Source: Rickettsiales bacterium
GTDB taxonomy: Bacteria > Pseudomonadota > Alphaproteobacteria > Rs-D84
Assembly: GCA_031256175.1 (NCBI GenBank)
Contig: JAIRRC010000032.1
Location: 347-64,346 of the forward strand
Reading direction: 5' to 3'
DNA: 64,000 nt
Numbering within the stretch: the stretch's first letter is position 1; the number at the start of each line of letters is the position of its first letter. The position numbers and the translations under genes were made by a program. Below the pieces are notes generated by a model that searched no databases, was not told the origin of the DNA, and saw nothing but the letters and a program-made list of their open reading frames with translations. Positions 5,900 to 51,377 of the stretch are shown here, one piece after another.

Positions 5900-6114
5900 C
5901 TCTGCTTCCTTTTTGTTAAACGACAATGCGCGCCTTCCGACGGCATCTCGCGACGCGCACATCAATTCGCGCCTAATAACGGCGCTTATTGTGCGCTTAT
6001 TCGCTCGCTGTCATCTGTCTTTGCCAGACCATGCGTTTGTCATTTCCTTTATGTTTATAGCTAGACCGGATGATTTTACAATGCTATAATCCGTTTGTCA
6101 AATGGAGCCGAAAA

Positions 6115-8505: not shown

Positions 8506-9909
8506 TTAGCCTTCCAGTTTCGGGAAGAGGACGACCGGGTTTTTCGTTTTGAAAGATTCGATTATATTCGCGGACGCCGCCGGCATAATCGGCCGGGCCA
8601 TATAAGCCAATTCCAAGACTCCCTGCCCCAATGTTTTCAAGACCGACAGCAATTCTTCGCGTTTCGCCCCGTCTTTCGCAAGCGACCAGGGCTGCGTTTT
8701 ATCTATATATAGATTAAGTTCCGAGCTTTTATTCAAGATATTTTCCGCAAGCGATTTGATGTCCGAAAGGTTTTCTATTCCTGGCGCCTTGGGCTGGACG
8801 GACAATTCCATATCCGGCGAATATTTCTCCATCATCTTGAATGTGCGAAGATAAAGATTGCCGAAGTTGTTCGCAAGCACGCCGTATTCTTTTTTCAGCA
8901 AATCTTCCGATATGACGGAATCCTTCGCAATCGCCGCGTTATGCGCGAAGTAAAACCTTAACGCGTCCGCGCCAAGCTCGCCTATAACTTTGAACGGGTC
9001 GATGGTATTGCCCAGGCTTTTCGACATTTTGACGCCGCCTTCGCCCGTCCAGAAGGCATGGACACAAGTCCGATGCGCGGGCGGCAGGCCGAAGCTTCGC
9101 AGCATTATCGGCCAATAGATGCAATGCGCCTTCAGTATGTCTTTGCCTATGACGTGGATGGAGTTTTTCCAAAGCGAGTCGAATTTGTTTATGCGAAGCG
9201 AAGTTATATAATTTATCAGGGCGTCATACCAGACATAGGCGACTTGGTCCGTATCGAACGGGAATTCTATGCCGGCGGACACGCGCTTTTTCGGGCGCGA
9301 AATCGACAAGTCGTCAAGCGGTTCTTTAAGCATGTTCAAGACTTCGGCGCGGTAGCTTTCAGGCTGAATCCATTCGGGATTTTCATTTATATACCCGACC
9401 AGCCATTCGCGGTGCGGCTCCAATGGAAGCAAATAATTTTCCTCCTCCATCTCGGTCGGCGCCTTCTGGTGGTCGGCGCATAAGCCGCGCGCGTCCAGGT
9501 CGGATTCCTTTTTGAACTGCTCGCACCCGACGCAGTAAAGTCCCTTGTATTTTTTCTTCACAAGAATTTTTTTCGCGTGCGCGTCCGCCAGCCATTCCTG
9601 GACTATCTTTTTATGCTCCGGCATAGTGGTTCGAATGAAAAAATCCGGCGTCGCGCCAAGCTCGTCCGCAAGCTGTTTGAAACGCGCGCTTTGCTTCGCC
9701 GCGAATTCTTCGAAGGGCAATCCGGCGGCGGCTGCGGCGTCCTGCATTTTCTGCCCGTGCTCGTCCGTGCCTGTCGTGAAGAAGACGTTGTCGCCTTGCA
9801 GCTTGAAGGCGCGGCGCAGGATGTCGCACATCGCGGTGGTATAGGCGCTGCCCAGATGCGGCGCGCCGTTCGGATAATAAATCGGGGTAGTTATGTATTT
9901 TTCAGCCAT
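8506..9909 (-). CDS. metG: methionine--tRNA ligase (short form)
   Basis: TTPIYYPNGAPHLGSAYTT N-terminus, KMSKS motif, Zn knuckle CVGCEQF..CADH. Confidence 0.8.
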   Translation of the reverse strand: MAEKYITTPIYYPNGAPHLGSAYTTAMCDILRRAFKLQGDNVFFTTGTDEHGQKMQDAAAAAGLPFEEFAAKQSARFKQLADELGATPDFFIRTTMPEHKKIVQEWLADAHAKKILVKKKYKGLYCVGCEQFKKESDLDARGLCADHQKAPTEMEEENYLLPLEPHREWLVGYINENPEWIQPESYRAEVLNMLKEPLDDLSISRPKKRVSAGIEFPFDTDQVAYVWYDALINYITSLRINKFDSLWKNSIHVIGKDILKAHCIYWPIMLRSFGLPPAHRTCVHAFWTGEGGVKMSKSLGNTIDPFKVIGELGADALRFYFAHNAAIAKDSVISEDLLKKEYGVLANNFGNLYLRTFKMMEKYSPDMELSVQPKAPGIENLSDIKSLAENILNKSSELNLYIDKTQPWSLAKDGAKREELLSVLKTLGQGVLELAYMARPIMPAASANIIESFKTKNPVVLFPKLEG

Positions 9910-10752: not shown

Positions 10753-10781
10753 TTGAAAATGGGCGGCGCGTGCTTTATAGT
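10753..10781 (+). promoter_or_regulatory. putative sigma70 promoter of tRNA-Ala
   Basis: TTGAAA-17 nt-TATAGT, 11 nt upstream of tRNA 5' end. Confidence 0.45.
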
Positions 10782-10792
10782 TTGAAATCCGT

Positions 10793-10868
10793 GGGGCCGT
10801 AGCTCAGTTGGTAGAGCGCTTCGTTCGCAATGAAGAGGTCGGGAGTTCGAATCTCCTCGGTTCCACCA
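10793..10868 (+). tRNA. tRNA-Ala (anticodon CGC)
   Basis: 76-nt cloverleaf, G3:U70 Ala identity pair, anticodon loop TTCGCAA, encoded CCA. Confidence 0.9.
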
Positions 10869-10993
10869 TTAACTTGGTACCGCGCCATCCTTCGTTCCCT
10901 CGCGACGCGCACATCAACTCACGGCTAACAACGCCGCTCGTTGTGTGCTTATTCGCTCGTGCTCGAATCCGATTGGCTCCACCATTAACTTGG
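10869..10993 (+). repeat. tRNA-3'-associated structured element (family A, copy 2) ending in a direct repeat of the tRNA-Ala 3' end
   Basis: ~100-bp segment ~85% identical to 30574-30669 and to 5925-6020; 16-bp exact DR TCCACCATTAACTTGG at 10862-10877 and 10978-10993. Confidence 0.65.
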
Positions 10994-11003
10994 GACAAAG
11001 ATT

Positions 11004-11297
11004 ATGAAAGTAATAACTATCTGCGGTTCGCTTAAATTCCAACAAGAAATGATATATTGGTCCGAAAAACTGGAACTCGACGGAAACTGCGTTCTAAGCT
11101 GCATCTATCCGTCCGGGAAAAAAGAGGACTTGACGCCCGAACAGGAAGAAGTCTTGGACAGGGGGCACTTGAAGAAGATAGATTTGTCAGATGCGATTTT
11201 TGTTGTGAACAAGGGCGGATATACCGGATTCAGCACGAAAAACGAAATCGAATACGCCAAAGCCCACGGCAAGGAAATCATGTTCTTAGAGCAATGA
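11004..11297 (+). CDS. nucleoside 2-deoxyribosyltransferase-like small protein
   Basis: 97 aa; ICGSLKF..DAIFVVN..GGYTGFSTKNEIEYAKAHGKEI resembles NDT/Rcl-like fold. Confidence 0.5.
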   Translation: MKVITICGSLKFQQEMIYWSEKLELDGNCVLSCIYPSGKKEDLTPEQEEVLDRGHLKKIDLSDAIFVVNKGGYTGFSTKNEIEYAKAHGKEIMFLEQ

Positions 11298-11301
11298 AAT
11301 A

Positions 11302-12291
11302 ATGGCAAGACTCAAACTGCATATTTCCCATCTGTCGCCTTTGTTCAAGGACGCTTTGGCGCTTGTTCAAAACGACAAGTTCCAACTAACCTTCCAAGAC
11401 CATCTTATCAATAATCCGGCCGCGCTGGCCGACACCATCCGCGACGCGGATATTCTTTACCTTGGCGGCGACGATTATTATTCGCGGGAAGTTTTAAGCC
11501 AGGCGAAAAACTTGAAACTGATTTCCTTCGGCGGCACCGGATACGAATCCTACATCGACGCCGCGGCGGCGACAGAACTCGGCATCGCCATAACGAACAC
11601 GCCCGGCGCGAACAGCGACTCCGTCGCGAACCACAAGCGCGATTTCATACGCGCGGCCATAAACCAAATAATCGCGCCGGACAAGGCGGGCGTCTATATG
11701 CCGAACCCGCGGGACGTCAAAATCGGCCTTATCGGCTTCGGGAACATTCATCAGGCGTTATATGAAAAGCTGAGGGGCAAATACGACGTCCATTTTTGGA
11801 ACAGGACCAAAATCGACAATCCGGATTACAGGGATTTGGACACTTTGCTTGGCGAGAGCAATCTTCTCAGCATATCGATAACCGCGAACGATTCGACGAA
11901 GGGTTTCCTTGGGCCGGAAGAATTCCGCAAGATGAAAAACAATTCCTTCGGCATCGTGAATTCCTGCCGGCACAATCTTGTGGACGAGCGCGCGCCCGTC
12001 CAGTTCCTTAACGAGAACTGGCCGCGGTCGTATCATGTCGACCAGGACGTCCGCATCGACGGGGTCATCCCCTGCCCGCGCAATCCGAACAAGGTCGCGA
12101 CCACGCCAAGCAGCGGCTGCCGCACCGCGGAAGCATGGAACAAGACCGACATGATGGCGTTCCAGAACATCGCCCTTTTCGCGAACGCCGGGACTTCGAA
12201 ATATATCGTGAATCCCGAATATAAAAAGGCCGCGGTCAATTCGGCCGTCAACACCGCCTTTATTATGGACAGGATGGCGCGAAGGAATTAA
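11302..12291 (+). CDS. D-isomer-specific 2-hydroxyacid dehydrogenase family protein
   Basis: NAD-binding GLIGFGNIHQA (GxGxxG) and overall 2-HADH architecture. Confidence 0.75.
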   Translation: MARLKLHISHLSPLFKDALALVQNDKFQLTFQDHLINNPAALADTIRDADILYLGGDDYYSREVLSQAKNLKLISFGGTGYESYIDAAAATELGIAITNTPGANSDSVANHKRDFIRAAINQIIAPDKAGVYMPNPRDVKIGLIGFGNIHQALYEKLRGKYDVHFWNRTKIDNPDYRDLDTLLGESNLLSISITANDSTKGFLGPEEFRKMKNNSFGIVNSCRHNLVDERAPVQFLNENWPRSYHVDQDVRIDGVIPCPRNPNKVATTPSSGCRTAEAWNKTDMMAFQNIALFANAGTSKYIVNPEYKKAAVNSAVNTAFIMDRMARRN

Positions 12292-12312
12292 GATATAAAA
12301 AAGGAGTCGGCA

Positions 12313-12771
12313 ATGTTTTGGAAAATCGGATTTTTCATCCAGCTTATTCTTATCATCGCGATGGTATGGGTCTTCATCAAGGCGAATCCCATGAAGAACG
12401 AGGGCGCAGCCAGCTGGATTGACATATATTCGAAAGACCCGGCCGCCACAATCAAATTCCTGAACGATGTTTTCGGCACCCAGGTTGTCGAAACAAAAGC
12501 CAGCGAAACGCCCGGCATGGACTATAAAGTTCTGAAAGCGAAAGGCCAGATGTGGCCGTTCGCGGGAATCATGGAATGGCCGGAAAAGGATTTTCCTTCG
12601 CACACCATGATTTATCTGACGACCAAAGATTATGCCGCGACCCATAAGAAGATGATAGAGCTTGGCGCGACCCCCGTCATGACCGACAAATACGCGGGCG
12701 GCATGAAGTTCGGGATATACGGAATACCGGGCCGCGTCTATATCGGCATCGCCGAATGGAAAGAGCGCTAA
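12313..12771 (+). CDS. VOC (glyoxalase/bleomycin-resistance) family protein
   Basis: 152 aa; VOC-like beta-alpha-beta pattern; hydrophobic N-terminus may mean the true start is internal. Confidence 0.5.
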   Translation: MFWKIGFFIQLILIIAMVWVFIKANPMKNEGAASWIDIYSKDPAATIKFLNDVFGTQVVETKASETPGMDYKVLKAKGQMWPFAGIMEWPEKDFPSHTMIYLTTKDYAATHKKMIELGATPVMTDKYAGGMKFGIYGIPGRVYIGIAEWKER

Positions 12772-13088
12772 TCATGAAACAGACAATCTACGCAGAAGTT
12801 TTCCGCGCTTCGCAGAACGAGCTGTGGATGGAACAGATTCTTCCGATGCAGGGAATCGGCCCAGCGGATTATATTTACGGCTCGAATATATTCATGCCCA
12901 GGGAACTGGTCGTCAAGGAAGGCCCGTATTTTAACAAGAACGTTTTTATCGAGGAAGGAAGCCGGATAAAAATCGAATATAACGCGAAAGAAAAACACGA
13001 ACACAGCGGCGCGCTCGGCATTCTTCGCCTGAAACAAAGGCAAATCATCGCGGCCGAAGTCGTCGGACGGAAAGAACATATCATATGA
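12756..13088 (+). CDS. hypothetical protein
   Basis: 110-aa ORF overlapping preceding stop; no family recognised. Confidence 0.35.
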   Translation: MERALIMKQTIYAEVFRASQNELWMEQILPMQGIGPADYIYGSNIFMPRELVVKEGPYFNKNVFIEEGSRIKIEYNAKEKHEHSGALGILRLKQRQIIAAEVVGRKEHII

Positions 13089-13119: not shown

Positions 13120-14025
13120 TTAGGACAGCCTCTTTTTCAAAGGCGCGATGTATTTGTCCATTATAGGGTCGTCAACTTCGTTCTGGTCGCAGATGTCGAA
13201 CGCTTCCCTTGTGTATTTCCTTATCCCGCCCGCCGCGCCGCCGCAGCCCGAACCGCGCGGCGCCCTTTTCGAATATTCCTCCCACGATTTGCAATGGTAA
13301 TGATTGCACCTTATCGCGAAGCCTTCTATCGGGCCTTCGTTCGACATGACGTTTTTCCCGGCGAACATATGGCGGCGGTGGATTCCGGGGCGCGCCGTGA
13401 AGCGCGGGTTCGCGATGGTCTTATACATGTCGCCCGGAAGTTTGAAATTGTTTTTCGCCGCGCGGGTTTTGAAATTCTCTATAACCAGGCCAGCCGGTTT
13501 CTTCTCGTGGCCGTTCGAACCATACATGACCCAGCCCGCCCAAACCTGCGAAGTATCTTTCGGAAGCGAATCCAGATATTCCGTTATGGTTTCATGTTCC
13601 GTCGGCACCAAGAATTCGTCCAAGTCTATAACCGCGAACCATTTCGCTTCGAATTTTTTCGTGTCGAAGGCGTGCTGATAAACGGCCAGCTGCTGCTTCT
13701 GGCCCGGCCAGAATTTATACTCGACCACGCCGGATTTTATATAAGGCGCCAAAACTTCCTTTATATCGTCCGTCGATTCATTGTCATAGATATAAAACTT
13801 TTCCACGCCAAGCATGCGATGGTATTCAATCCATTCGCGGAAATACGCGCCCTCGTTTTTCGCGATGGCGACTATCGCGAGCTTATAAGGAAATTCCAGC
13901 TTCGGTTCGGCAAGGCGCGCGCGTATGGATTTTATCAAACCGAAATGCAAAATGTTTCTTGCGCGGACGCGCCAAGGTCTGTAAGGAATCAATCCGCCGA
14001 TTATGTTTATTAGGGTTTTCTTCAT
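13120..14025 (-). CDS. glycosyltransferase family 92 (DUF23) protein, paralog 1
   Basis: AIAKNEGAYFREWIEYHRMLGVEKFYIYDNESTD..IDLDEFLVP signature; paralogous to 38734-39654 and 39651-40532. Confidence 0.75.
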   Translation of the reverse strand: MKKTLINIIGGLIPYRPWRVRARNILHFGLIKSIRARLAEPKLEFPYKLAIVAIAKNEGAYFREWIEYHRMLGVEKFYIYDNESTDDIKEVLAPYIKSGVVEYKFWPGQKQQLAVYQHAFDTKKFEAKWFAVIDLDEFLVPTEHETITEYLDSLPKDTSQVWAGWVMYGSNGHEKKPAGLVIENFKTRAAKNNFKLPGDMYKTIANPRFTARPGIHRRHMFAGKNVMSNEGPIEGFAIRCNHYHCKSWEEYSKRAPRGSGCGGAAGGIRKYTREAFDICDQNEVDDPIMDKYIAPLKKRLS

Positions 14026-14212: not shown

Positions 14213-14246
14213 GAATAAAAAGAGTCGCCGCAAAATGCGGCGACTT
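14213..14246 (-). terminator. rho-independent terminator of dnaK
   Basis: GTCGCCGC-AAAAT-GCGGCGAC hairpin followed on minus strand by CTCTTTTTATT. Confidence 0.7.
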
Positions 14247-14314
14247 AAAGACCACCCCGCCCGCCTTCGTCCTTTGGACTCCGGCGCGGCACCCCTCGCT
14301 ACGGGGGGAACTTT
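14247..14314 (-). repeat. 68-bp exact repeat R68 (copy 1), abutting the dnaK stop codon
   Basis: Identical to 44206-44273; GC-rich with internal CCCC..GGGG hairpin and complementary ends. Confidence 0.85.
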
Positions 14315-30499: not shown

Positions 30500-30573
30500 T
30501 GGGGCGTCGTCTAACGGTAGGACAAGAGATTTTGGTTCTCTTTATCGCGGTTCGAATCCGTGCGCCCCAACCA
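30500..30573 (+). tRNA. tRNA-Gln (anticodon UUG)
   Basis: 74-nt cloverleaf, U1:A72, anticodon stem AGAGA/TCTCT, loop TTTTGGT, encoded CCA. Confidence 0.85.
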
Positions 30574-30688
30574 GAATGCAGGCGCGCGCCATCCTTCGTT
30601 CCCTCGCGACGCGCACATCAATTCGCCGCTAATAACGCGGCTCATTGTGTGCTTGTTTGCTCGTGCTCGAATCCGTGCGCCCCAACCA
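30574..30688 (+). repeat. tRNA-3'-associated structured element (family A, copy 3) ending in 19-bp direct repeat of tRNA-Gln 3' end
   Basis: 96-bp segment homologous to 10878-10977 and 5925-6020; DR AATCCGTGCGCCCCAACCA at 30555-30573 and 30670-30688. Confidence 0.7.
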
Positions 30689-30855
30689 GATTTTTATCAC
30701 GCCCCGAAGAGGCGGGATAAAAATATGTATTGGGTTGCCGGATGAAGAACCGCGAGGAAGCGGTTCGACAACCAGCGTTGCATTTTTAATGCAACGCGCA
30801 GGTGCGGCGAAGCAAGGACGCCAGTCCTTGCGAGTCAATCCGTGCGCCCCAACCA
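30689..30855 (+). repeat. second tandem tRNA-3'-associated element (family B) ending in third copy of the tRNA-Gln 3' direct repeat
   Basis: 148-bp segment with perfect hairpin GCGTTGCAT-TTTTA-ATGCAACGC; third DR at 30837-30855; weak similarity to the tRNA-Met associated segment. Confidence 0.65.
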
Positions 30856-30869
30856 AATAGAGGTGAGAA

Positions 30870-31736
30870 ATGTCGATATTCATAGACATCGGGTCCAGCA
30901 CTATCAAGACTTATGAATTATCCGCCGGTGGCGCTTTGGATTTGGTCGACGAGTTTTCAACTTTATTCAAAGACGGGTTCGCGCCGGACGCGGGCGTCGC
31001 GGAAGACAAGATAAATGCGCTGCTTACGCATCTCTCGAAATGGCGCGGGCAAGACGTCAAGACTTTCGCCACGGGAATTTGGCGAGAAATTCCGGCCGCG
31101 CAACTCGCATTCTTAAAATCAAATTCGCCCGTCGGTTTCGACGTCATTTCGCACGACGACGAGGCGCGCTACTTGAAACAAGCCGCAGCCCTGCCTTTCA
31201 ACGGCAAGAAGGCCTTGGTTATAAACATGGGCGGCAAAACGACCGAGCTTGTGTCCGTCGAACAGGGCGGCGCCGTTAAAACGCAGCTGCTTAAAATCGG
31301 CGTCGCGGATTTGCTGAACAAGTTCCCCGAAGTGAACGAAGAAAAATCCGGCGCGTCCATAAGCGACATGGAAAAATTCGTCGCCGAGAAACTCGCGTCG
31401 GAAGAATTCGACACGGACTACGACTTCGCGCTTTTCACGGGCGAGCTGCGGTTCGAAAAACTTTCCGGTTATCCCCTTGAACCGAACACTCAATTTTCGG
31501 AATCCAACCATCCGTTCCAAGTTTCCATCGAAGGTTTCGTCGCTGGCACGATGCGCATATTTTTCGACATGACTATGGCCGAACTTCGCGCGCTTATGCC
31601 CAAAAATCCGAACTGGATGACGGGCGCGCGGCCGGGCGCGGTCCTGCCGCTTGCCATCTTCAACCGGGCCGGTATAAAGGTCGTGGTGCCAAGCGATTTG
31701 AACCTTATAAACGGCGCCGTCCGCGACTTCATATAA
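30870..31736 (+). CDS. Ppx/GppA-family phosphatase-like (ASKHA fold) protein
   Basis: IDIGSSTIK..VISHDDEARYLKQAA..LVINMGGKTTELV match Ppx/GppA N-domain motifs. Confidence 0.6.
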   Translation: MSIFIDIGSSTIKTYELSAGGALDLVDEFSTLFKDGFAPDAGVAEDKINALLTHLSKWRGQDVKTFATGIWREIPAAQLAFLKSNSPVGFDVISHDDEARYLKQAAALPFNGKKALVINMGGKTTELVSVEQGGAVKTQLLKIGVADLLNKFPEVNEEKSGASISDMEKFVAEKLASEEFDTDYDFALFTGELRFEKLSGYPLEPNTQFSESNHPFQVSIEGFVAGTMRIFFDMTMAELRALMPKNPNWMTGARPGAVLPLAIFNRAGIKVVVPSDLNLINGAVRDFI

Positions 31737-38733: not shown

Positions 38734-39654
38734 TTAACTCAGGCGTTTTTTAAGGGGTGCGATGAATTTATCCATTATGGGGTCGGACACTTCGTTATGG
38801 TCGCAATTGTCGAAGAATTCCCGCGTGTATTTTTTCGCCCCGTGCGCTATGCCGCCCCTGCCCGTTCCGCGCGGCGCGCGCTTCTGGTATTCTTCCCACG
38901 ATTTGCAATGGTAATGGTTGCACCGAATCCCCCAGTCCGAAATCTTCCCGTCGCATTCCCTGACCTGCACGCCGGCGTCCAAGGTCCCCTGGTCGTGGCA
39001 ACTGGTCGCGATGACCAGGCGCGGATTGAAAACGCTTTTATGCGCGGGCCCGGGAAGCTTGAAATTATTCTCGGCCGCGCGGGTTTTGAAATTCTCTATA
39101 ACCAGGCCCGATGGTTTGGTCAAATGCCCGCCGCTGCCATACATCGCCCAGCCGACCAAAACTTGCGAAGCGTTTTTCGGCAATTTATCCAGATATTCCG
39201 GAATCGTTCCATCCTTCGTCGGGACCAAGAATTCATCCAAGTCGATGATGGCCATCCATTTCGTAGCGTATTTATGTTTCTTTATCGAATCCCAGTAGGC
39301 CTGCAACTGCACCCTTTGGCCCGGCCAGAATTTGTATTCCACCAGGCCCGATTTCATATAAGGCGTAAGCACCGACCTTGTGTTGTCAGTGGATTCATTG
39401 TCGTAAATGTAAAACTTCTCGACGCCCAGCATGCGATGGTATTCAATCCATTCCTTGAAATACGCGCCTTCGTTTTTCGCAATCGCGGTTATGGAAAGCT
39501 TATAGCGGAACTTCAATTTATGCTCGGTTTTCCGGAACCGGCGCGCGGCCAGGCAATAATTCACAAGCCCGAACGTCAAAGCGTTCCTGACTTTATGGCG
39601 CCGCTGCGGGTTCTTGAAAAACGCCGAGATTATATTCGCGAAAAATTTCCTCAT
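38734..39654 (-). CDS. glycosyltransferase family 92 protein, paralog 2
   Basis: Same GT92 signature; true start MRKFF at 39654 (ATGA overlap with paralog 3 stop); the upstream ORF extension to 40173 is another frame of paralog 3. Confidence 0.75.
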   Translation of the reverse strand: MRKFFANIISAFFKNPQRRHKVRNALTFGLVNYCLAARRFRKTEHKLKFRYKLSITAIAKNEGAYFKEWIEYHRMLGVEKFYIYDNESTDNTRSVLTPYMKSGLVEYKFWPGQRVQLQAYWDSIKKHKYATKWMAIIDLDEFLVPTKDGTIPEYLDKLPKNASQVLVGWAMYGSGGHLTKPSGLVIENFKTRAAENNFKLPGPAHKSVFNPRLVIATSCHDQGTLDAGVQVRECDGKISDWGIRCNHYHCKSWEEYQKRAPRGTGRGGIAHGAKKYTREFFDNCDHNEVSDPIMDKFIAPLKKRLS

Positions 39655-40532
39655 GCCTTTTCCTTTATGTCGTTCAAGTCGAATTTTTCGAAATAGTCCA
39701 GGCCGCGCTTGGCCAAAGACCGCGTCGCGCGGCCGCGCGCGCGCTTGTCCAAGAATTCCTGCCAGCTTTTGACCGCGTAATGCTTTATAAAAATCACGTC
39801 GTGCTGAGGCACGCGGCCCGGATGTTGGCGCAATATCGCGTCGCCGTGGGAATCCGCCGCGCGGCCGGCCAAGCGCACGGCTTCGTGCGTGCCGACGAAG
39901 GACGAAACCATTCTTGGATTCACTATCGCTTTGACATGGCGGTTCACTTCGGCTTCCGGGCGCGCGTGGCAGCGGAAGCGCGCCATGACGCCCCCGGCCG
40001 TTTTCTTCTTCGCGCCGCCGCTGCCGTAGCACAGCCAGTTGATTTCGACCAATGCGAATTTTTCGAACCGGCGCAAAAACTTTGGGATGGTTTTGTCCGC
40101 GACCGGCGCGATGAATTCGTCCAAGTCTATGAACGCAATCCAGCGCGCGTCCAGCCTGCGGCGCGCAAGGCAATCGTTGTATGACGGAATCTGCTTCAAT
40201 CTGCCCGGCACAAAAGTATATTCGACCAGGCCGGATTTTATGTATGGAGCCAAAACTTTTTTGGTATCGTCCGTCGATTCATTGTCGTATATATAGAATT
40301 TCTCGACGCCGAGCGCGCGGTGCCATTCAATCCATTCCTTGAAATAAGCGCCCTCGTTCTTGGCAATCGCCGCGACGGCGAGATAGTATTTCGGGCGGGT
40401 TTTGTCCGCGCGCATTTTGCGGCGCAGAAGAAACGCGCGAATCAGGCCAAAATTCACAAGCCCGCGAACGCGGCTTCGCGCGACTTTGCCCGGGACGAAG
40501 GCGGCGACGATTTCAGCGAGGACTTTTTTCAT
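39651..40532 (-). CDS. glycosyltransferase family 92 protein, paralog 3
   Basis: AIAKNEGAYFKEWIEWHRALGVEKFYIYDNESTDD..IDLDEFIAP. Confidence 0.75.
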   Translation of the reverse strand: MKKVLAEIVAAFVPGKVARSRVRGLVNFGLIRAFLLRRKMRADKTRPKYYLAVAAIAKNEGAYFKEWIEWHRALGVEKFYIYDNESTDDTKKVLAPYIKSGLVEYTFVPGRLKQIPSYNDCLARRRLDARWIAFIDLDEFIAPVADKTIPKFLRRFEKFALVEINWLCYGSGGAKKKTAGGVMARFRCHARPEAEVNRHVKAIVNPRMVSSFVGTHEAVRLAGRAADSHGDAILRQHPGRVPQHDVIFIKHYAVKSWQEFLDKRARGRATRSLAKRGLDYFEKFDLNDIKEKA

Positions 40533-42313: not shown

Positions 42314-44214
42314 TCCAGCATATTCTGCGGGACGGGAACCGGCATCGGAACCGGCATGCCGGTTTTATCGCCCCATTTAATAGCGTCCAGCAAATCTATA
42401 ACCCGGCCGTCTTCGAATATATTCTCGGACGCAACTTTGCGCCCGCCGAAATAATCGAAGCCCGGCAAATCTTCCGGCACCACCGGAATTTCGAATCCGT
42501 AATCGCCGCTCCAACCGATTTTCAGGCCGCCGTTCCAGCCGTTGTTTCCCGCGTTCTTCCTTATATCTATGTTCATATCTGCGACAAGCGGAATCTGGCC
42601 TTCGCGCGGGTTTATGCAATACGCGCAGCCGGACGGGTCGAGCACCATAAGCTGGCGCAATGCGCCGCAATAAATTCCCGCCGCGCCATTATCGCCAGCG
42701 CACCAGGCGGGGCTGCACGCCGCGGACCGGGCCGCGCGCGCGTATCCGGCGGGACATGGCGGAACAAGGCCGGGCTTTTCTTCCAAGCTGACGCATTCGC
42801 CCTTGTTGCCCGCGCCGCTTGGCACGAAAACCGCGTTCGCGCCGCAGACCGAGGAATGAGTTCCCGAGTATCTGCACGAAGCCACGAAAGGATGGAAGGC
42901 GCCGTTCGTATCGACCTTGAACGGCGAACAATCCAAGCAGTTGAATTTCCTGTTCATCGAATGGCCGGCGTCCAATGAAATGCCGACCGCCGCCAAGCCC
43001 GCGACATTATTCAACGCCGCCAAGTTATACGAAGGGTCGTTCGGGAATCCGAAATAGAACGCCTTATAATCGCCGCCGGAACATTCGGCCGCGTTCGGAT
43101 AGCAGCCTTTGAACGCAAGCCGCGACGCGTCCGGCACGCAGACAAGCGCGCAGGTAGCCGGGTCCTGCATTTCGGTTTCGCAGTCGCCGCACTGGCTGGC
43201 GGTCCGCATAACGCCGCCGCCGTAAGGCGACTTGCCCTTGGCGGGCGGCGGGCATTTGCCGACCTCTTCCGACGCCGCCATGAAGGGATTGCCTATGCAG
43301 ACCCATTCAAGTTTTTCATAATCATAACTTGCGACCTTGCCCTTCGGGCATTCTTTGGCCTCGGACGGCGGGCGGCAGGTCCAGACGCCGTCCATAAGCA
43401 CGGCCGTTTCAAGGCCGCCGCAAATCGGCCGCGCGGAAGCGTTCGCCACGCAGTCGCCGACTTCGGCGTCGAAAATCATGTCGCCCTGGCATAATTTTAC
43501 TTGGGTCGGCTGCTCGCACCGCCAAGTTCTGTATCTAAAAACCTTCACTTCGCCGGGCGCGCAGGAAAGGGTCGCAGCTTCGCGCCGGATTTGTTCGCTC
43601 CGCAATTCTTCCGCCGTGAATTGCGTCATATACGCCAAGTCGCCGGATTTCAGCGATGCGGCGCGGACCAGCGCATCGCTTAGCCAGACCGGGCGGGAGT
43701 TCGCCGATAGAATCGCGGTTTTCGATGCCGCTTCGCCCCCGTCGCCTTCGAATTCGGCGTTCATCACGATGCCGAGGCCGGGCGCGCCCTTATACTTGCG
43801 GCGCACGGCGTCCATTATGCGGCCGGAAGAATCAGCGCCCGCCCAAGGCGATTTCGTTATGACGAACCTTTGGATTTGCTCCGGATTTCGGGAATCGACG
43901 CGGCAGCTTCTGGACACTTCGCCGTCTTTAAGGCAGACGACCGACGACGACACCTTGTATTTATCGATACACGGACTTTCGGCCATGGCGTAGTTTTTAG
44001 CGCCGTCGTCTTCGGCCCGCGCCGATTCCAAAGCCGCGGCATGAAGCGCGACCACGCACGACACCGCCGCGAAGGCGTCGGACTTATCCAAGACTTCTTC
44101 GGATGTCTGGACATCGGTTCGCATGGAAGGGGCGCCCAGATAATAATATCCGGCCATGAACAGGAATACCAAGACGATTAGAAAAATGTTCATACATTCT
44201 CTCTCAAAGACCAC
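42265..44214 (-). CDS. large cysteine-rich secreted/anchored protein of unknown function
   Basis: 649 aa, N-terminal hydrophobic anchor, >40 Cys in CxxC/CG clusters, Pro-rich C-terminus (PVPMPVPVP); heads the minus-strand polysaccharide operon. Confidence 0.55.
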   Translation of the reverse strand: MVFERECMNIFLIVLVFLFMAGYYYLGAPSMRTDVQTSEEVLDKSDAFAAVSCVVALHAAALESARAEDDGAKNYAMAESPCIDKYKVSSSVVCLKDGEVSRSCRVDSRNPEQIQRFVITKSPWAGADSSGRIMDAVRRKYKGAPGLGIVMNAEFEGDGGEAASKTAILSANSRPVWLSDALVRAASLKSGDLAYMTQFTAEELRSEQIRREAATLSCAPGEVKVFRYRTWRCEQPTQVKLCQGDMIFDAEVGDCVANASARPICGGLETAVLMDGVWTCRPPSEAKECPKGKVASYDYEKLEWVCIGNPFMAASEEVGKCPPPAKGKSPYGGGVMRTASQCGDCETEMQDPATCALVCVPDASRLAFKGCYPNAAECSGGDYKAFYFGFPNDPSYNLAALNNVAGLAAVGISLDAGHSMNRKFNCLDCSPFKVDTNGAFHPFVASCRYSGTHSSVCGANAVFVPSGAGNKGECVSLEEKPGLVPPCPAGYARAARSAACSPAWCAGDNGAAGIYCGALRQLMVLDPSGCAYCINPREGQIPLVADMNIDIRKNAGNNGWNGGLKIGWSGDYGFEIPVVPEDLPGFDYFGGRKVASENIFEDGRVIDLLDAIKWGDKTGMPVPMPVPVPQNMLDCAMSGARCAPDQTAE

Positions 44215-44273
44215 CCCGCCCGCCTTCGTCCTTTGGACTCCGGCGCGGCACCCCTCGCTACGGGGGGAACTTT
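44206..44273 (-). repeat. 68-bp exact repeat R68 (copy 2), overlapping the stop codon of the MerR-family gene
   Basis: Identical to 14247-14314. Confidence 0.85.
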
Positions 44274-49946: not shown

Positions 49947-51053
49947 CTATTTCACTATGCCGTGGAACTGGGCGAACAGCGCCGGGTTCATAATCGCGCC
50001 GCTTGCCGCGAAGGCCATATTCGCGCCTTCCTCGAACCGGCCGTCGAACTGGCGGCCGTGAACCACGCCGCCGCTGCTGCCGATTGAAAGCGTGTCGGCC
50101 TTCAAATGTTTCTTAATAAGCGCCATGTCGGAAAGCCATTTGGTCGCGAAGGACTCTATGCCCGCGCCGCAGACGCCCGAAACCGCGTTCGGGCTTCCGT
50201 CCGCTTTCGTGCGGCCCGGAAGCGCCGGCGCGCCGTCCGCGTCCACGACGTTCATGGAAATGGTATTGATTCCGACTATGCCGTCGACGCCGGCGCGCAG
50301 CGCTTCGTCCGCCACTATCATCATGCCGTGCATGTCGGATTCTTTCGGATTGTTCTTGCAGGCGTGCCAGCCGACTTTGATATGAACCGGAATGTTCCAT
50401 CCGATTTCGTTCCTGACAGCCGCGACTATGCCGGCGACGAAGTCCGCGTCGGCGTATATGATTCCAAGTTCCGGCTTCACGTTCGGGCATGAAAGGTTAA
50501 GCTCGATTTCCTTGGCGCCGGCTTCGACCGCAAGGCGCGCCGCGCGGGCGTAATCCTTGGCCAAGGCCAATTTCGCCTGGTCGGCGGAAAGGCCGCCCGC
50601 GTTCTTATCCGGGCTGCCGACGACCGAGACAATCATGCGGCGGTTGAATTTTTCGGCGTATTGCTGGGACGCGGCGACATCGGGCATCCAAACGTCGGGC
50701 GAATCGGACGGCATTCCGAATGAATTCGTCATGGTCCATGATTCGTTCGAAGACGACGCAAGCGCCGTTCCGCCCGGAATTATTTCGGCGTTCTTTTCGA
50801 CGAATATGCAGTTCGGATGCGGCAGGCACTGCCATCCTTGGGAACGGATGGTCTTATACACGACGATTCCGGCGCCCATGTCGACCGCGTATTTTATGAA
50901 GTTGTAATCCAGAAGCGGACCGGCGGCGACGCCGACCTGCGCCTTGGCCTGGGCCGGGGTCAGGATATAGGGCTTTTCGATTTTCGGGGGATTCTTGCGG
51001 TTGTCCGCATAGGATATTCCGGGATTGTATAGAGAGGACATGGCATGCTCCAT
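49947..51053 (-). CDS. dihydroorotate dehydrogenase-family (class 1-like) flavoprotein
   Basis: ELNLSCPN signature of DHOD/DHPD family, TIM-barrel length. Confidence 0.65.
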   Translation of the reverse strand: MEHAMSSLYNPGISYADNRKNPPKIEKPYILTPAQAKAQVGVAAGPLLDYNFIKYAVDMGAGIVVYKTIRSQGWQCLPHPNCIFVEKNAEIIPGGTALASSSNESWTMTNSFGMPSDSPDVWMPDVAASQQYAEKFNRRMIVSVVGSPDKNAGGLSADQAKLALAKDYARAARLAVEAGAKEIELNLSCPNVKPELGIIYADADFVAGIVAAVRNEIGWNIPVHIKVGWHACKNNPKESDMHGMMIVADEALRAGVDGIVGINTISMNVVDADGAPALPGRTKADGSPNAVSGVCGAGIESFATKWLSDMALIKKHLKADTLSIGSSGGVVHGRQFDGRFEEGANMAFAASGAIMNPALFAQFHGIVK

Positions 51054-51095: not shown

Positions 51096-51300
51096 TGGTG
51101 GGTTAGCACGGACTCGCTCGCCCTTGCGGGCTGCGCGGCATTCGTATTCGCCGCTTGCGCGGCTTCGTTCGAACTTCGCCTTACGGCTCGTTCTCACTAA
51201 CTCATTGTCGAACCGCCCGCCGCTTCGCGGCTCTTTGCGGATTCTCGTCCGCGCATAATTATCCAAAAATTTGCGACAGCCTTCGGCCGTCTTAAATTTT
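51096..51300 (-). repeat. tRNA-3'-associated element downstream of tRNA-Met ending in a 21-bp direct repeat of the tRNA 3' end
   Basis: 184-bp ORF-less segment; DR TGGTGGGTTAGCACGGACTCG at 51301-51321 and 51096-51116. Confidence 0.65.
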
Positions 51301-51377
51301 TGGTGGGTTAGCACGGACTCGAACCGCGGACCAAAGCGTTATGAGCGCTCCGCTCTAACCAACTGAGCTACTAACCC
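51301..51377 (-). tRNA. tRNA-Met (anticodon CAU; elongator or tRNA-Ile2)
   Basis: 77-nt cloverleaf, G1:C72 (not initiator), anticodon loop CTCATAA, encoded CCA. Confidence 0.85.

Follow-up and report, generated by a model that had tools for sequence, protein, structure and literature searches.

What placed a second copy of a tRNA 3′ end just downstream of an intact tRNA gene? The question is raised by the tRNA-Ala(CGC) gene on contig JAIRRC010000032.1 of a Rickettsiales-labeled bacterium, within the 64-kb stretch (64,000 nucleotides) that was analyzed in full and is referred to here as the window. The segment enclosed between the tRNA and the second copy of its 3′ end is an 82-bp member of a palindromic repeat family, termed family A. 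An earlier interpretation, made without database searches (the sequence-only reading), attributed the arrangement to integrase-mediated crossover at an att core. The structure is real and reproducible, and the att-site idea is supported in part. The account that we tentatively favor, at a probability somewhat short of even, is that this segment and comparable inserts at two other tRNA genes are non-autonomous att-flanked mini-inserts that arose by site-specific recombination at the T-loop and now lie in leader transcripts connecting the tRNAs to downstream genes.

The exact 16-mer TCCACCATTAACTTGG occurs at positions 10862–10877 and again at 10978–10993, an offset of 116 nt, which bears out the earlier observation that the tRNA-Ala 3′ end recurs downstream in a repeat that crosses the tRNA boundary. 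The expected chance recurrence of this 16-mer within 400 nt of a given site is ~1e-7. The repeat was thought to extend 9 nt past CCA; it does pass CCA, but it is longer than that, beginning at TCGAATC in the T-loop and ending at CCA+12 nt (TTAACTTGG[T/G]AC). Over these 34 nt, which include the exact core, 28 positions are identical between 10847–10880 and 10963–10996. The family-A core between the two copies has the left arm CGCGCCATCCTTCG... and the right arm ...GCTCGTGC. Alignment of positions 10881–10971 with the tRNA-Gln-linked segment at 30585–30675 yielded 83 identical positions out of 91 (91%, blastn E=1e-28) and an exact block of 37 nt, exceeding the ~85% estimated earlier; a longer alignment gave 87% over 104 nt. 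Shuffled sequence contained no match to the core.

The same att-like architecture is seen at three of the four tRNA genes in the window, with one insert at tRNA-Ala, two in tandem at tRNA-Gln and one at tRNA-Met. tRNA-Val is the only one lacking an insert. Each insert is closed by a copy of the 3′ segment of its own upstream tRNA (4/4), and all four duplications start in the T-loop, at T55, C56 or A58, and terminate between CCA+0 and CCA+12. The inserts range in size from 82 to 184 bp and the repeats are 19, 21, 24 and 34 nt long. Beside the 28/34 at Ala, the identities between repeat copies are 24/24 and 19/19 at Gln and 21/21 at Met, and one copy completes the intact tRNA. The next gene on the same strand follows the distal copies after a gap of 7–55 nt.

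These structures were also recovered outside the assembled contig. Logan assemblies of SRR14710886 independently support both Ala junctions: contig L024 runs from tRNA-Ala into the core, and contig L005 from the core through the distal copy into the downstream gene. The Gln and Met insert junctions were likewise found in independent Logan contigs. Because both Ala junctions were recovered independently, an assembly artifact is unlikely. The contig is metagenome-assembled and short-read assemblers break at repeats of this kind; nonetheless, an artifact or a chance resemblance is barely credible given the expected recurrence, the absence of any matching shuffle, the Logan junctions and the four parallel cases at three tRNAs. 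The features of the three loci, together with a family-A copy remote from any tRNA, are collected in Table 1.

Table 1 Features of the tRNA-associated inserts and of the family-A copies in the window.
Feature	Position	Strand	Evidence or remark
Sigma70-like promoter of tRNA-Ala	10753–10781	+	Promoter scan
tRNA-Ala(CGC), intact	10793–10868	+	ARAGORN; Rfam tRNA 66.7 bits
Proximal Ala repeat copy: T-loop (TCGAATC), T-stem 3′, acceptor 3′, CCA, TTAACTTGGTAC	10847–10880	+	Pairs with resident T-stem 5′ GGGAG
Family-A core at tRNA-Ala, 82 bp, imperfect palindrome	10881–10962	+	Covariance model 99.1 bits, E=1e-22
Apex hairpin GCACATCAA-[stem]-CTAACAACG-[stem′]-TTGTGTGC	10909–10948	+	Alignment folding, pair counting
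Distal Ala repeat copy	10963–10996	+	First 23 nt as in tRNA-Ala 3′ end of sister species L006
Downstream ORF (open reading frame), 97 aa	11004–11297	+	Starts 7 nt past distal Ala repeat
tRNA-Gln(UUG)	30500–30573	+	ARAGORN
Gln repeat copy P	30552–30575	+	24 nt, ending 2 nt past the tRNA
Second family-A copy, 91-bp insert, core 30585–30663	30576–30666	+	Covariance model 98.5 bits
Gln repeat copy M	30667–30690	+	24/24 identical to P
B_Gln, 146-bp structured insert unrelated to family A	30691–30836	+	
Gln repeat copy D (AATCC...CCA), 19 nt	30837–30855	+	Followed by ancestral-type flank AATAG and Ppx/GppA-like gene at 30870
Non-tRNA family-A copy, core 5929–6007	5918–6045	+	Spacer between AMP-binding gene and exoIII-like gene; 96.4 bits
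Apex hairpins of the other window copies	30613–30652; 5957–5996		
tRNA-Met(CAU)	51301–51377	-	ARAGORN, Rfam
B_Met, 184-bp structured insert downstream of tRNA-Met	51117–51300	-	
Exact copy of tRNA-Met 3′ end, 21 nt (CGAGTCCGTGCTAACCCACCA)	51096–51116	-	Upstream of gene starting at 51053/51041

The family-A core is self-complementary over the whole unit and thus forms an imperfect palindrome. Its apex loop, CTAAYAACG, is conserved, and the stem below the loop is exchanged in pairs (CGGC/GCCG, CCGC/GCGG, GCGCC/GGCGC and AAAATTTTC/GAAAATTTT). Over six copies, 91.8% of the cells in the apex helix are paired and five pairs have both sides changed, and none of 500 shuffles did as well. Three of these copies are in the window and three are in relatives (loci L001, L006 and L019), all scoring 81–99 bits with a covariance model. 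A search with this model of the window and 126 kb of relatives identified no copy beyond the six, and none was present in the more distant relatives L008, L009 and L021. The apex stem varies by genome and not by locus, all three window copies having the GC-rich type and L006, L019 and L001 the AT-rich type. At an orthologous locus, too, the stem differs between genomes while the loop is unchanged. Such genome-specific stems suggest concerted evolution or repeated replacement.

The copies differ in their setting and in their ends. The non-tRNA copy of the window occupies the same position in L006, in the orthologous spacer at 9170–9300, and in L019, from the same species as L006, a copy lies antisense in the rpsR-rplI spacer. 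A further copy follows tRNA-Lys in a related metagenome-assembled genome (MAG; L001, JAIRUP010000002.1), where the first 68 nt of the copy are available and the left arm matches the window copies exactly over 37–38 nt. The tRNA-linked copies at Ala and Gln share the right end GCTCGTGC joined to TCGAATCC and then continue into tRNA-specific sequence, with the junction GTGC/TCGAATC constant. The non-tRNA copies have another right arm (GCTCG..TTCATC..) and a correspondingly different left arm. Family A is linked to tRNAs only where the T-loop is TTCGAAT (Ala, Gln and Lys), and is absent at Met and Val, where it is TTCGAGT. TTAA is found 7–10 nt to the left of the core in five of the six copies, and is not consistent on the right. 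Around the non-tRNA copy there is also a 12-nt near-repeat, TTCCTTTTTGTT at 5906–5917 and TTCCTTTATGTT at 6044–6055, and together with TTAA it may be the remnant of a target-site duplication. No family-A copy was seen inside an ORF.

Scanning the 19-nt invariant core over genome, metagenome and viral contigs returned one true relative, the copy at tRNA-Lys in L001; the remaining matches were chance occurrences in coding sequence. Six-frame translations of the core scored against nothing in a protein database. With Rfam 15 at the gathering threshold only the four tRNAs passed, and permissive scans of three insert regions gave sub-threshold noise. Other identities of the core were considered and rejected. 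A fold-back palindrome would have made the left arm the tRNA 3′ end in inverted form, but none of the alignments was better than shuffles (p>0.1). Reading the core by eye revealed neither the R″/R′ core sites (RYYYAAC/GTTRRRY) of an integron attC nor the matching T-stem 5′ or acceptor 5′ strand of a tRNA-like minihelix.

The second insert at tRNA-Gln (B_Gln) and the insert at tRNA-Met (B_Met) are sequence-unrelated to family A. Within B_Gln, the T-arm and acceptor 3′ strand of tRNA-Gln recur as a degenerate copy in inverted orientation (p=0.03), and additional half-sites of the T-arm are present in both B inserts (GCGGTTCGA/CAA; p=0.004 for the motif that they share). Treating the two as one family was abandoned, as their global alignment is unconvincing and significant only in a ~30-nt motif ending GCGGTTCGACAA. 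The string AAGARCCGCGA..GCGGTTCGACAA common to both consists of T-stem 5′ and half of the T-loop joined to foreign DNA. B_Met opens with GACGGCC-GAA-GGCTGTC, a hairpin that, with the T-run behind it, resembles a terminator, and several hairpins with GNRA-type tetraloops occur further in. Donor copies of B_Gln or B_Met were found neither in the window nor in the retrieved loci of relatives.

According to homologs of methionyl-tRNA synthetase (MetRS) and penicillin-binding protein 5 (PBP5), the window belongs to a clade whose MAGs are labeled Rickettsiales. The closest relative, the sister species L006, has a MetRS 83% identical to that of the window and a tRNA-Ala(CGC) with neither insert nor repeat. 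tRNA-Ala is also uninterrupted in L008 and L009, and in all three the flanks and neighboring genes are unlike those of the window. At tRNA-Gln the comparison is closer. In L009, L010 and L011 the uninterrupted tRNA is followed by AATAAATAG and the orthologous gene, a near-precise empty site. The distal-most Gln copy in the window is followed by AATAGAGG, in which the AATA flank of L009–L011 is retained; because of this match, the distal copy is taken to keep the ancestral flank. An orthologous tRNA-Gln locus was not found in the closest relative, whose PBP5 neighborhood has rplI in place of the tRNA. Between tRNA-Ala and a conserved pair of genes, a glycosyltransferase family 92 (GT92) gene and dnaK, the gene content of the window (11004–13088) and of L006 (3320–4805) is wholly different: four small genes including a 2-hydroxyacid dehydrogenase in the former, and a Gly_transporter-family gene with two small ORFs in the latter. 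Since the two closest genomes differ in this way, the 3′ flank of tRNA-Ala is a variable islet.

According to the account that we favor, the segment after tRNA-Ala would be a member of a hairpin repeat lodged in the attB-like 3′ part of the tRNA gene, and the direct repeat would be a duplication of the attL/attR type. Recombination of the tyrosine-integrase type, over an identity block beginning at the 7-nt T-loop, would leave an intact tRNA and a displaced 3′ fragment. Because the scanned ORFs of the window encode no recombinase, it would have to act, or have acted, in trans. The same process would have occurred twice at tRNA-Gln and once at tRNA-Met, so that tRNA 3′ ends would accrete small scars.

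Several features of the sequences are in line with this account. The four parallel inserts with their T-loop-to-CCA copies support it, and so do the restriction of family A to TTCGAAT loops and the uninterrupted Ala and Gln tRNAs of relatives. Along with the anticodon loop and the 3′ end, the T-loop is a canonical place for the attB of tyrosine integrases, and tRNA 3′ repeats with their onset in the T-loop are the signature of one integrase class. The variable repeat length fits historical att identity blocks and not fixed staggered cuts. The constant junction of GCTCGTGC with TCGAATC, followed by tRNA-specific sequence at Ala and Gln, is the layout expected of attR. The tandem Gln inserts resemble an accretion of decayed att-flanked elements, and the half-sites and inverted T-arm copy of the B inserts seem to indicate repeated recombination at T-arm sequence. 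The account also specifies certain variants. In an empty-site variant, ..CCAACCAAATAGAGG would directly follow tRNA-Gln or its first insert, or TTAACTTGGGAC would directly follow tRNA-Ala, and an excised circle would join ..GCTCGTGC-TCGAATC to the proximal 3′ segment. Under integration and target-duplication models alike, the Lys-linked copy would end ..GCTCGTGCTCGAATCCCCCAGCACCCACCA. Logan contig L022 begins exactly at window position 30837, where the distal Gln copy starts. This is what a graph branch from a variant without the second Gln insert would give, and it is only a hint; the other Logan contig ends (L005 and L025) are not at repeat boundaries.

A number of observations weigh against recombination at the T-loop. 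Of the 63 candidate ORFs in the window, 60 were scanned with Pfam, and no integrase, transposase, reverse transcriptase or Cas1 was identified among them. The inserts contain no gene or ORF remnants, and at 82–184 bp they are far below the size of known decayed islands. No phage, plasmid or viral-contig relative was found by BLAST against phages and plasmids or by searching viral contigs for both junctions (A and B) and for the apex of the AT type. One core occurs at three tRNAs, each of whose 3′ ends must be carried, and the route of acquisition is not evident. Family A is also present at non-tRNA sites without tRNA-like ends. The precise Ala empty site that had been proposed as a check, tRNA-Ala directly followed by TTAACTTGG, is shown by no relative examined, and the uninterrupted gene of L006 does not qualify because the genes downstream of it differ from those of the window. 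Crossover at an att core gains from the crossing of the tRNA boundary, the T-loop onset, the recurrence at Gln (twice) and Met and the uninterrupted tRNAs of relatives, and loses from the lack of a recombinase among the scanned ORFs, a core that is not tRNA-specific and the alleles of the two Ala copies.

These alleles do not behave as a simple T-loop crossover predicts. The distal copy, 10963–10985, is identical at 23 of 23 positions to the tRNA-Ala 3′ end of L006 (4845–4867), the 23rd base being the first past CCA. The tRNA-Ala of the window itself has five differences from this distal copy, in T-stem 3′ and acceptor 3′. It also has a compensating T-stem 5′ (GGGAG/CTCCT versus GTCGG/CCGAT), such that the resident GGGAG pairs with the proximal copy only. 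A T-loop crossover would be expected to make the distal copy host-derived, and this copy matches the L006 allele. The pattern fits no single-event model, and recombination at the T-loop needs an extra event here, for example that another allele replaced that of the tRNA or that the crossover took place near CCA.

The inserts share features with several known systems. Cis-mobilizable elements (CIMEs) have direct repeats of tRNA 3′ ends, lack integration genes and may accrete in tandem (PMC5704250; PMC9897764). The inserts likewise are flanked by tRNA 3′-end repeats, lack integration genes and are in tandem at tRNA-Gln. However, known CIMEs span kilobases and are recognizably derived from integrative and conjugative elements (ICEs) or integrative and mobilizable elements (IMEs), whereas the inserts are very short and family A is dispersed, palindromic and found at three different tRNAs as well as non-tRNA sites. 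As they show no sign of having descended from an ICE or IME, the inserts do not rank as CIMEs in the strict sense. The attP core of phage Ms6, 26 nt long, lies in the T-loop of tRNA-Ala (PMC1762012), and the attB sites of related integrases begin in the T-loop of different tRNA genes (bioRxiv 10.1101/2020.11.02.365908). The identity block in both cases extends from the 7-nt T-loop to or past the 3′ end of the gene, over 26 nt in Ms6 and 19–34 nt here. Unlike that class, no integrase, phage or island body, or attP-bearing relative was found for the inserts, in addition to the misfit of the Ala alleles.

In appearance, family A is closer to dispersed palindromic repeats: Rickettsia palindromic elements (RPEs), to which it is likened by description, enterobacterial repetitive intergenic consensus (ERIC) sequences and miniature inverted-repeat transposable elements (MITEs). 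It is a multi-copy imperfect palindrome of ~80–130 bp in a Rickettsiales-labeled lineage, lies in either orientation in intergenic regions that are transcribed, and has a hairpin held by compensatory changes. No RPE or ERIC is known to be enclosed by 20–34-nt copies of a tRNA 3′ end. Family A does not rank as a classical MITE, since a target-site duplication of fixed length was not seen and no parent insertion sequence is known. By these analogies, the element would work like a non-autonomous att-flanked element of the CIME type and look like an RPE, ERIC or MITE repeat.

The resemblance to transposons leads to a different origin, which we consider quite unlikely. Family A would be a miniature transposon, MITE- or casposon-like or retro-mobilized, that inserts into tRNA T-arms, and the T-loop-to-CCA repeat would be a target-site duplication from long staggered cuts that regenerates any tRNA hit. 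Casposons duplicate tRNA 3′ ends upon insertion, and share with the inserts the location at the tRNA 3′ end and a target duplication that keeps the gene intact. Such a transposon accounts for how a single core can be found at tRNA-Ala, tRNA-Gln and tRNA-Lys without disrupting any of them, and the palindromic, multi-copy nature of the element, the TTAA and the 12-nt near-repeat described above are in its favor. However, casposons are kilobases long with cas1 and polB and have a target-site duplication fixed at ~14–15 bp, and CRISPR repeat duplication is of the Cas1 type too. The repeats here vary from 19 to 34 nt, and the scanned ORFs include no Cas1 domain, transposase or reverse transcriptase. 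Neither the non-identical Ala copies nor the same duplication around the unrelated B inserts is expected of such a transposon, and TTAA is not consistently on both sides.

Microhomology-mediated template switching at replication would require no recombinase at all. The nascent strand would depart just past the tRNA, copy family A or other structured DNA from elsewhere and re-anneal by microhomology of the donor end (..GYTC(G)A(A)TC..) with the T-loop, after which the stretch from T-loop to CCA would be copied again. This origin is rather unlikely, yet it competes seriously with recombination at the T-loop and has several points on its side. The palindrome and the T-arm are both hairpin-prone, the right ends of the duplications vary, no recombinase was found in the scanned ORFs, and the inverted T-arm copy in B_Gln is typical of fold-back events. 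The generic right arms of the non-tRNA copies (GTGTTCATC and GGTTTCATC) resemble the T-arm GGTTCGAATC, which would supply microhomology where the duplications begin. Yet template switching should give rise to identical copies, whereas 6 of 34 positions distinguish the two Ala copies, of which the distal is the allele of another species. Moreover, the junction GTGC/TCGAATC is identical at Ala and Gln, which independent microhomology would not predict, no donor of the B inserts was found in the window or the retrieved loci, and four events at three of four tRNAs would be a high rate for an untargeted error.

Whichever of these origins applies, the inserts are situated where they may affect transcripts. 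Sigma70-like promoters precede tRNA-Ala and tRNA-Gln, and the promoter scan detected no promoter-like site inside the inserts, nor any from the tRNA-Ala promoter to the 11004 ORF. The earlier suggestion that the element donates a promoter was therefore not upheld, and its companion, that the element donates 5′ leader sequence, is plausible. Because they lie between a tRNA promoter and the next same-strand gene without such a site, the inserts probably serve as structured leaders in transcripts that join tRNA and mRNA. The predicted folds of tRNA-plus-insert transcripts are far better than those of shuffles (z = -5.3 and -5.2). For Gln the minimum-energy fold, and for Met the centroid fold, has the 5′ strand of the tRNA paired to the distal copy. 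The non-tRNA copy has a predicted minus-strand promoter on one side and the start codon of the AMP-binding gene on the other, and would therefore be antisense within the predicted 5′ untranslated region of that gene. As for the genes downstream of the inserts, the 11004 ORF, previously termed "NDT-like", has no Pfam match to back that label, and the Ppx/GppA assignment of the gene at 30870 has weak Pfam support (31 bits).

The unit could have been kept for a function in RNA, as a structured leader or as a processing or stability element in co-transcripts, with the tRNA 3′ copy preserving a processing context or an mRNA 5′ end. Retention of this kind is compatible with any of the proposed origins, and as an explanation in its own right it is unlikely. 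The position of the promoter-like sites and of the gene starts, the predicted folds, and the strong covariation and conserved loop of the apex hairpin all argue for it, as does the non-tRNA copy, whose position in a predicted 5′ untranslated region is conserved in two species. The distal Ala copy, moreover, is unchanged over 23 nt relative to a functional tRNA of L006. On the other hand, family A occurs in either orientation, sense after the tRNAs and antisense in the rpsR-rplI spacer and the AMP-binding gene leader; it has no Rfam match; and the tRNA-Ala of L006 does without it. Selfish palindromic repeats would show hairpin covariation equally. We give little credence to a bolder synthesis, in which family A would be an active, recombinase-less mobile hairpin that homes to the T-loops of different tRNAs, regenerates each tRNA by T-loop-to-CCA duplication through a previously undescribed mechanism, and rewires tRNA promoters to downstream genes via a structured leader.

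The 3′ ends of tRNA genes are classic landing sites of genomic islands. What is new here is the miniature size of the inserts, a single hairpin core that non-tRNA sites share with different tRNAs, and how densely the scars occur, with three of four tRNAs bearing scars of ~100–200 bp amid housekeeping surroundings in an uncultured lineage. If mobilized in trans by recombination at the T-loop, the inserts would be the smallest att-flanked passengers known and would show one element re-targeting different tRNAs. If template switching at the T-arm produced them, templated insertion would have intrinsic hotspots in tRNA genes, which would call for caution in taking "att repeats" as proof of integration. 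With either origin, the inserts would reshape the leaders of genes read through from tRNA promoters.

In the scanned ORFs of the window, Pfam identified housekeeping and envelope genes only. The largest direct-repeat families of the window are diverged GT92 paralogs at 13126–13910, 38740–39527 and 40188–40411, with 69–77% DNA identity. A second intergenic repeat family consists of a 71-nt GC-rich unit (..GACCACCCCGCCCGCCTTCGTCC..CCCCTCGCTACGGGGGG..) at 14244–14314, just past the dnaK stop codon, and at 44203–44273, between a MerR-family gene and a gene encoding 649 aa. The two copies are 99% identical, and partial matches to the unit occur in the sister species (L019, 2850–2924).

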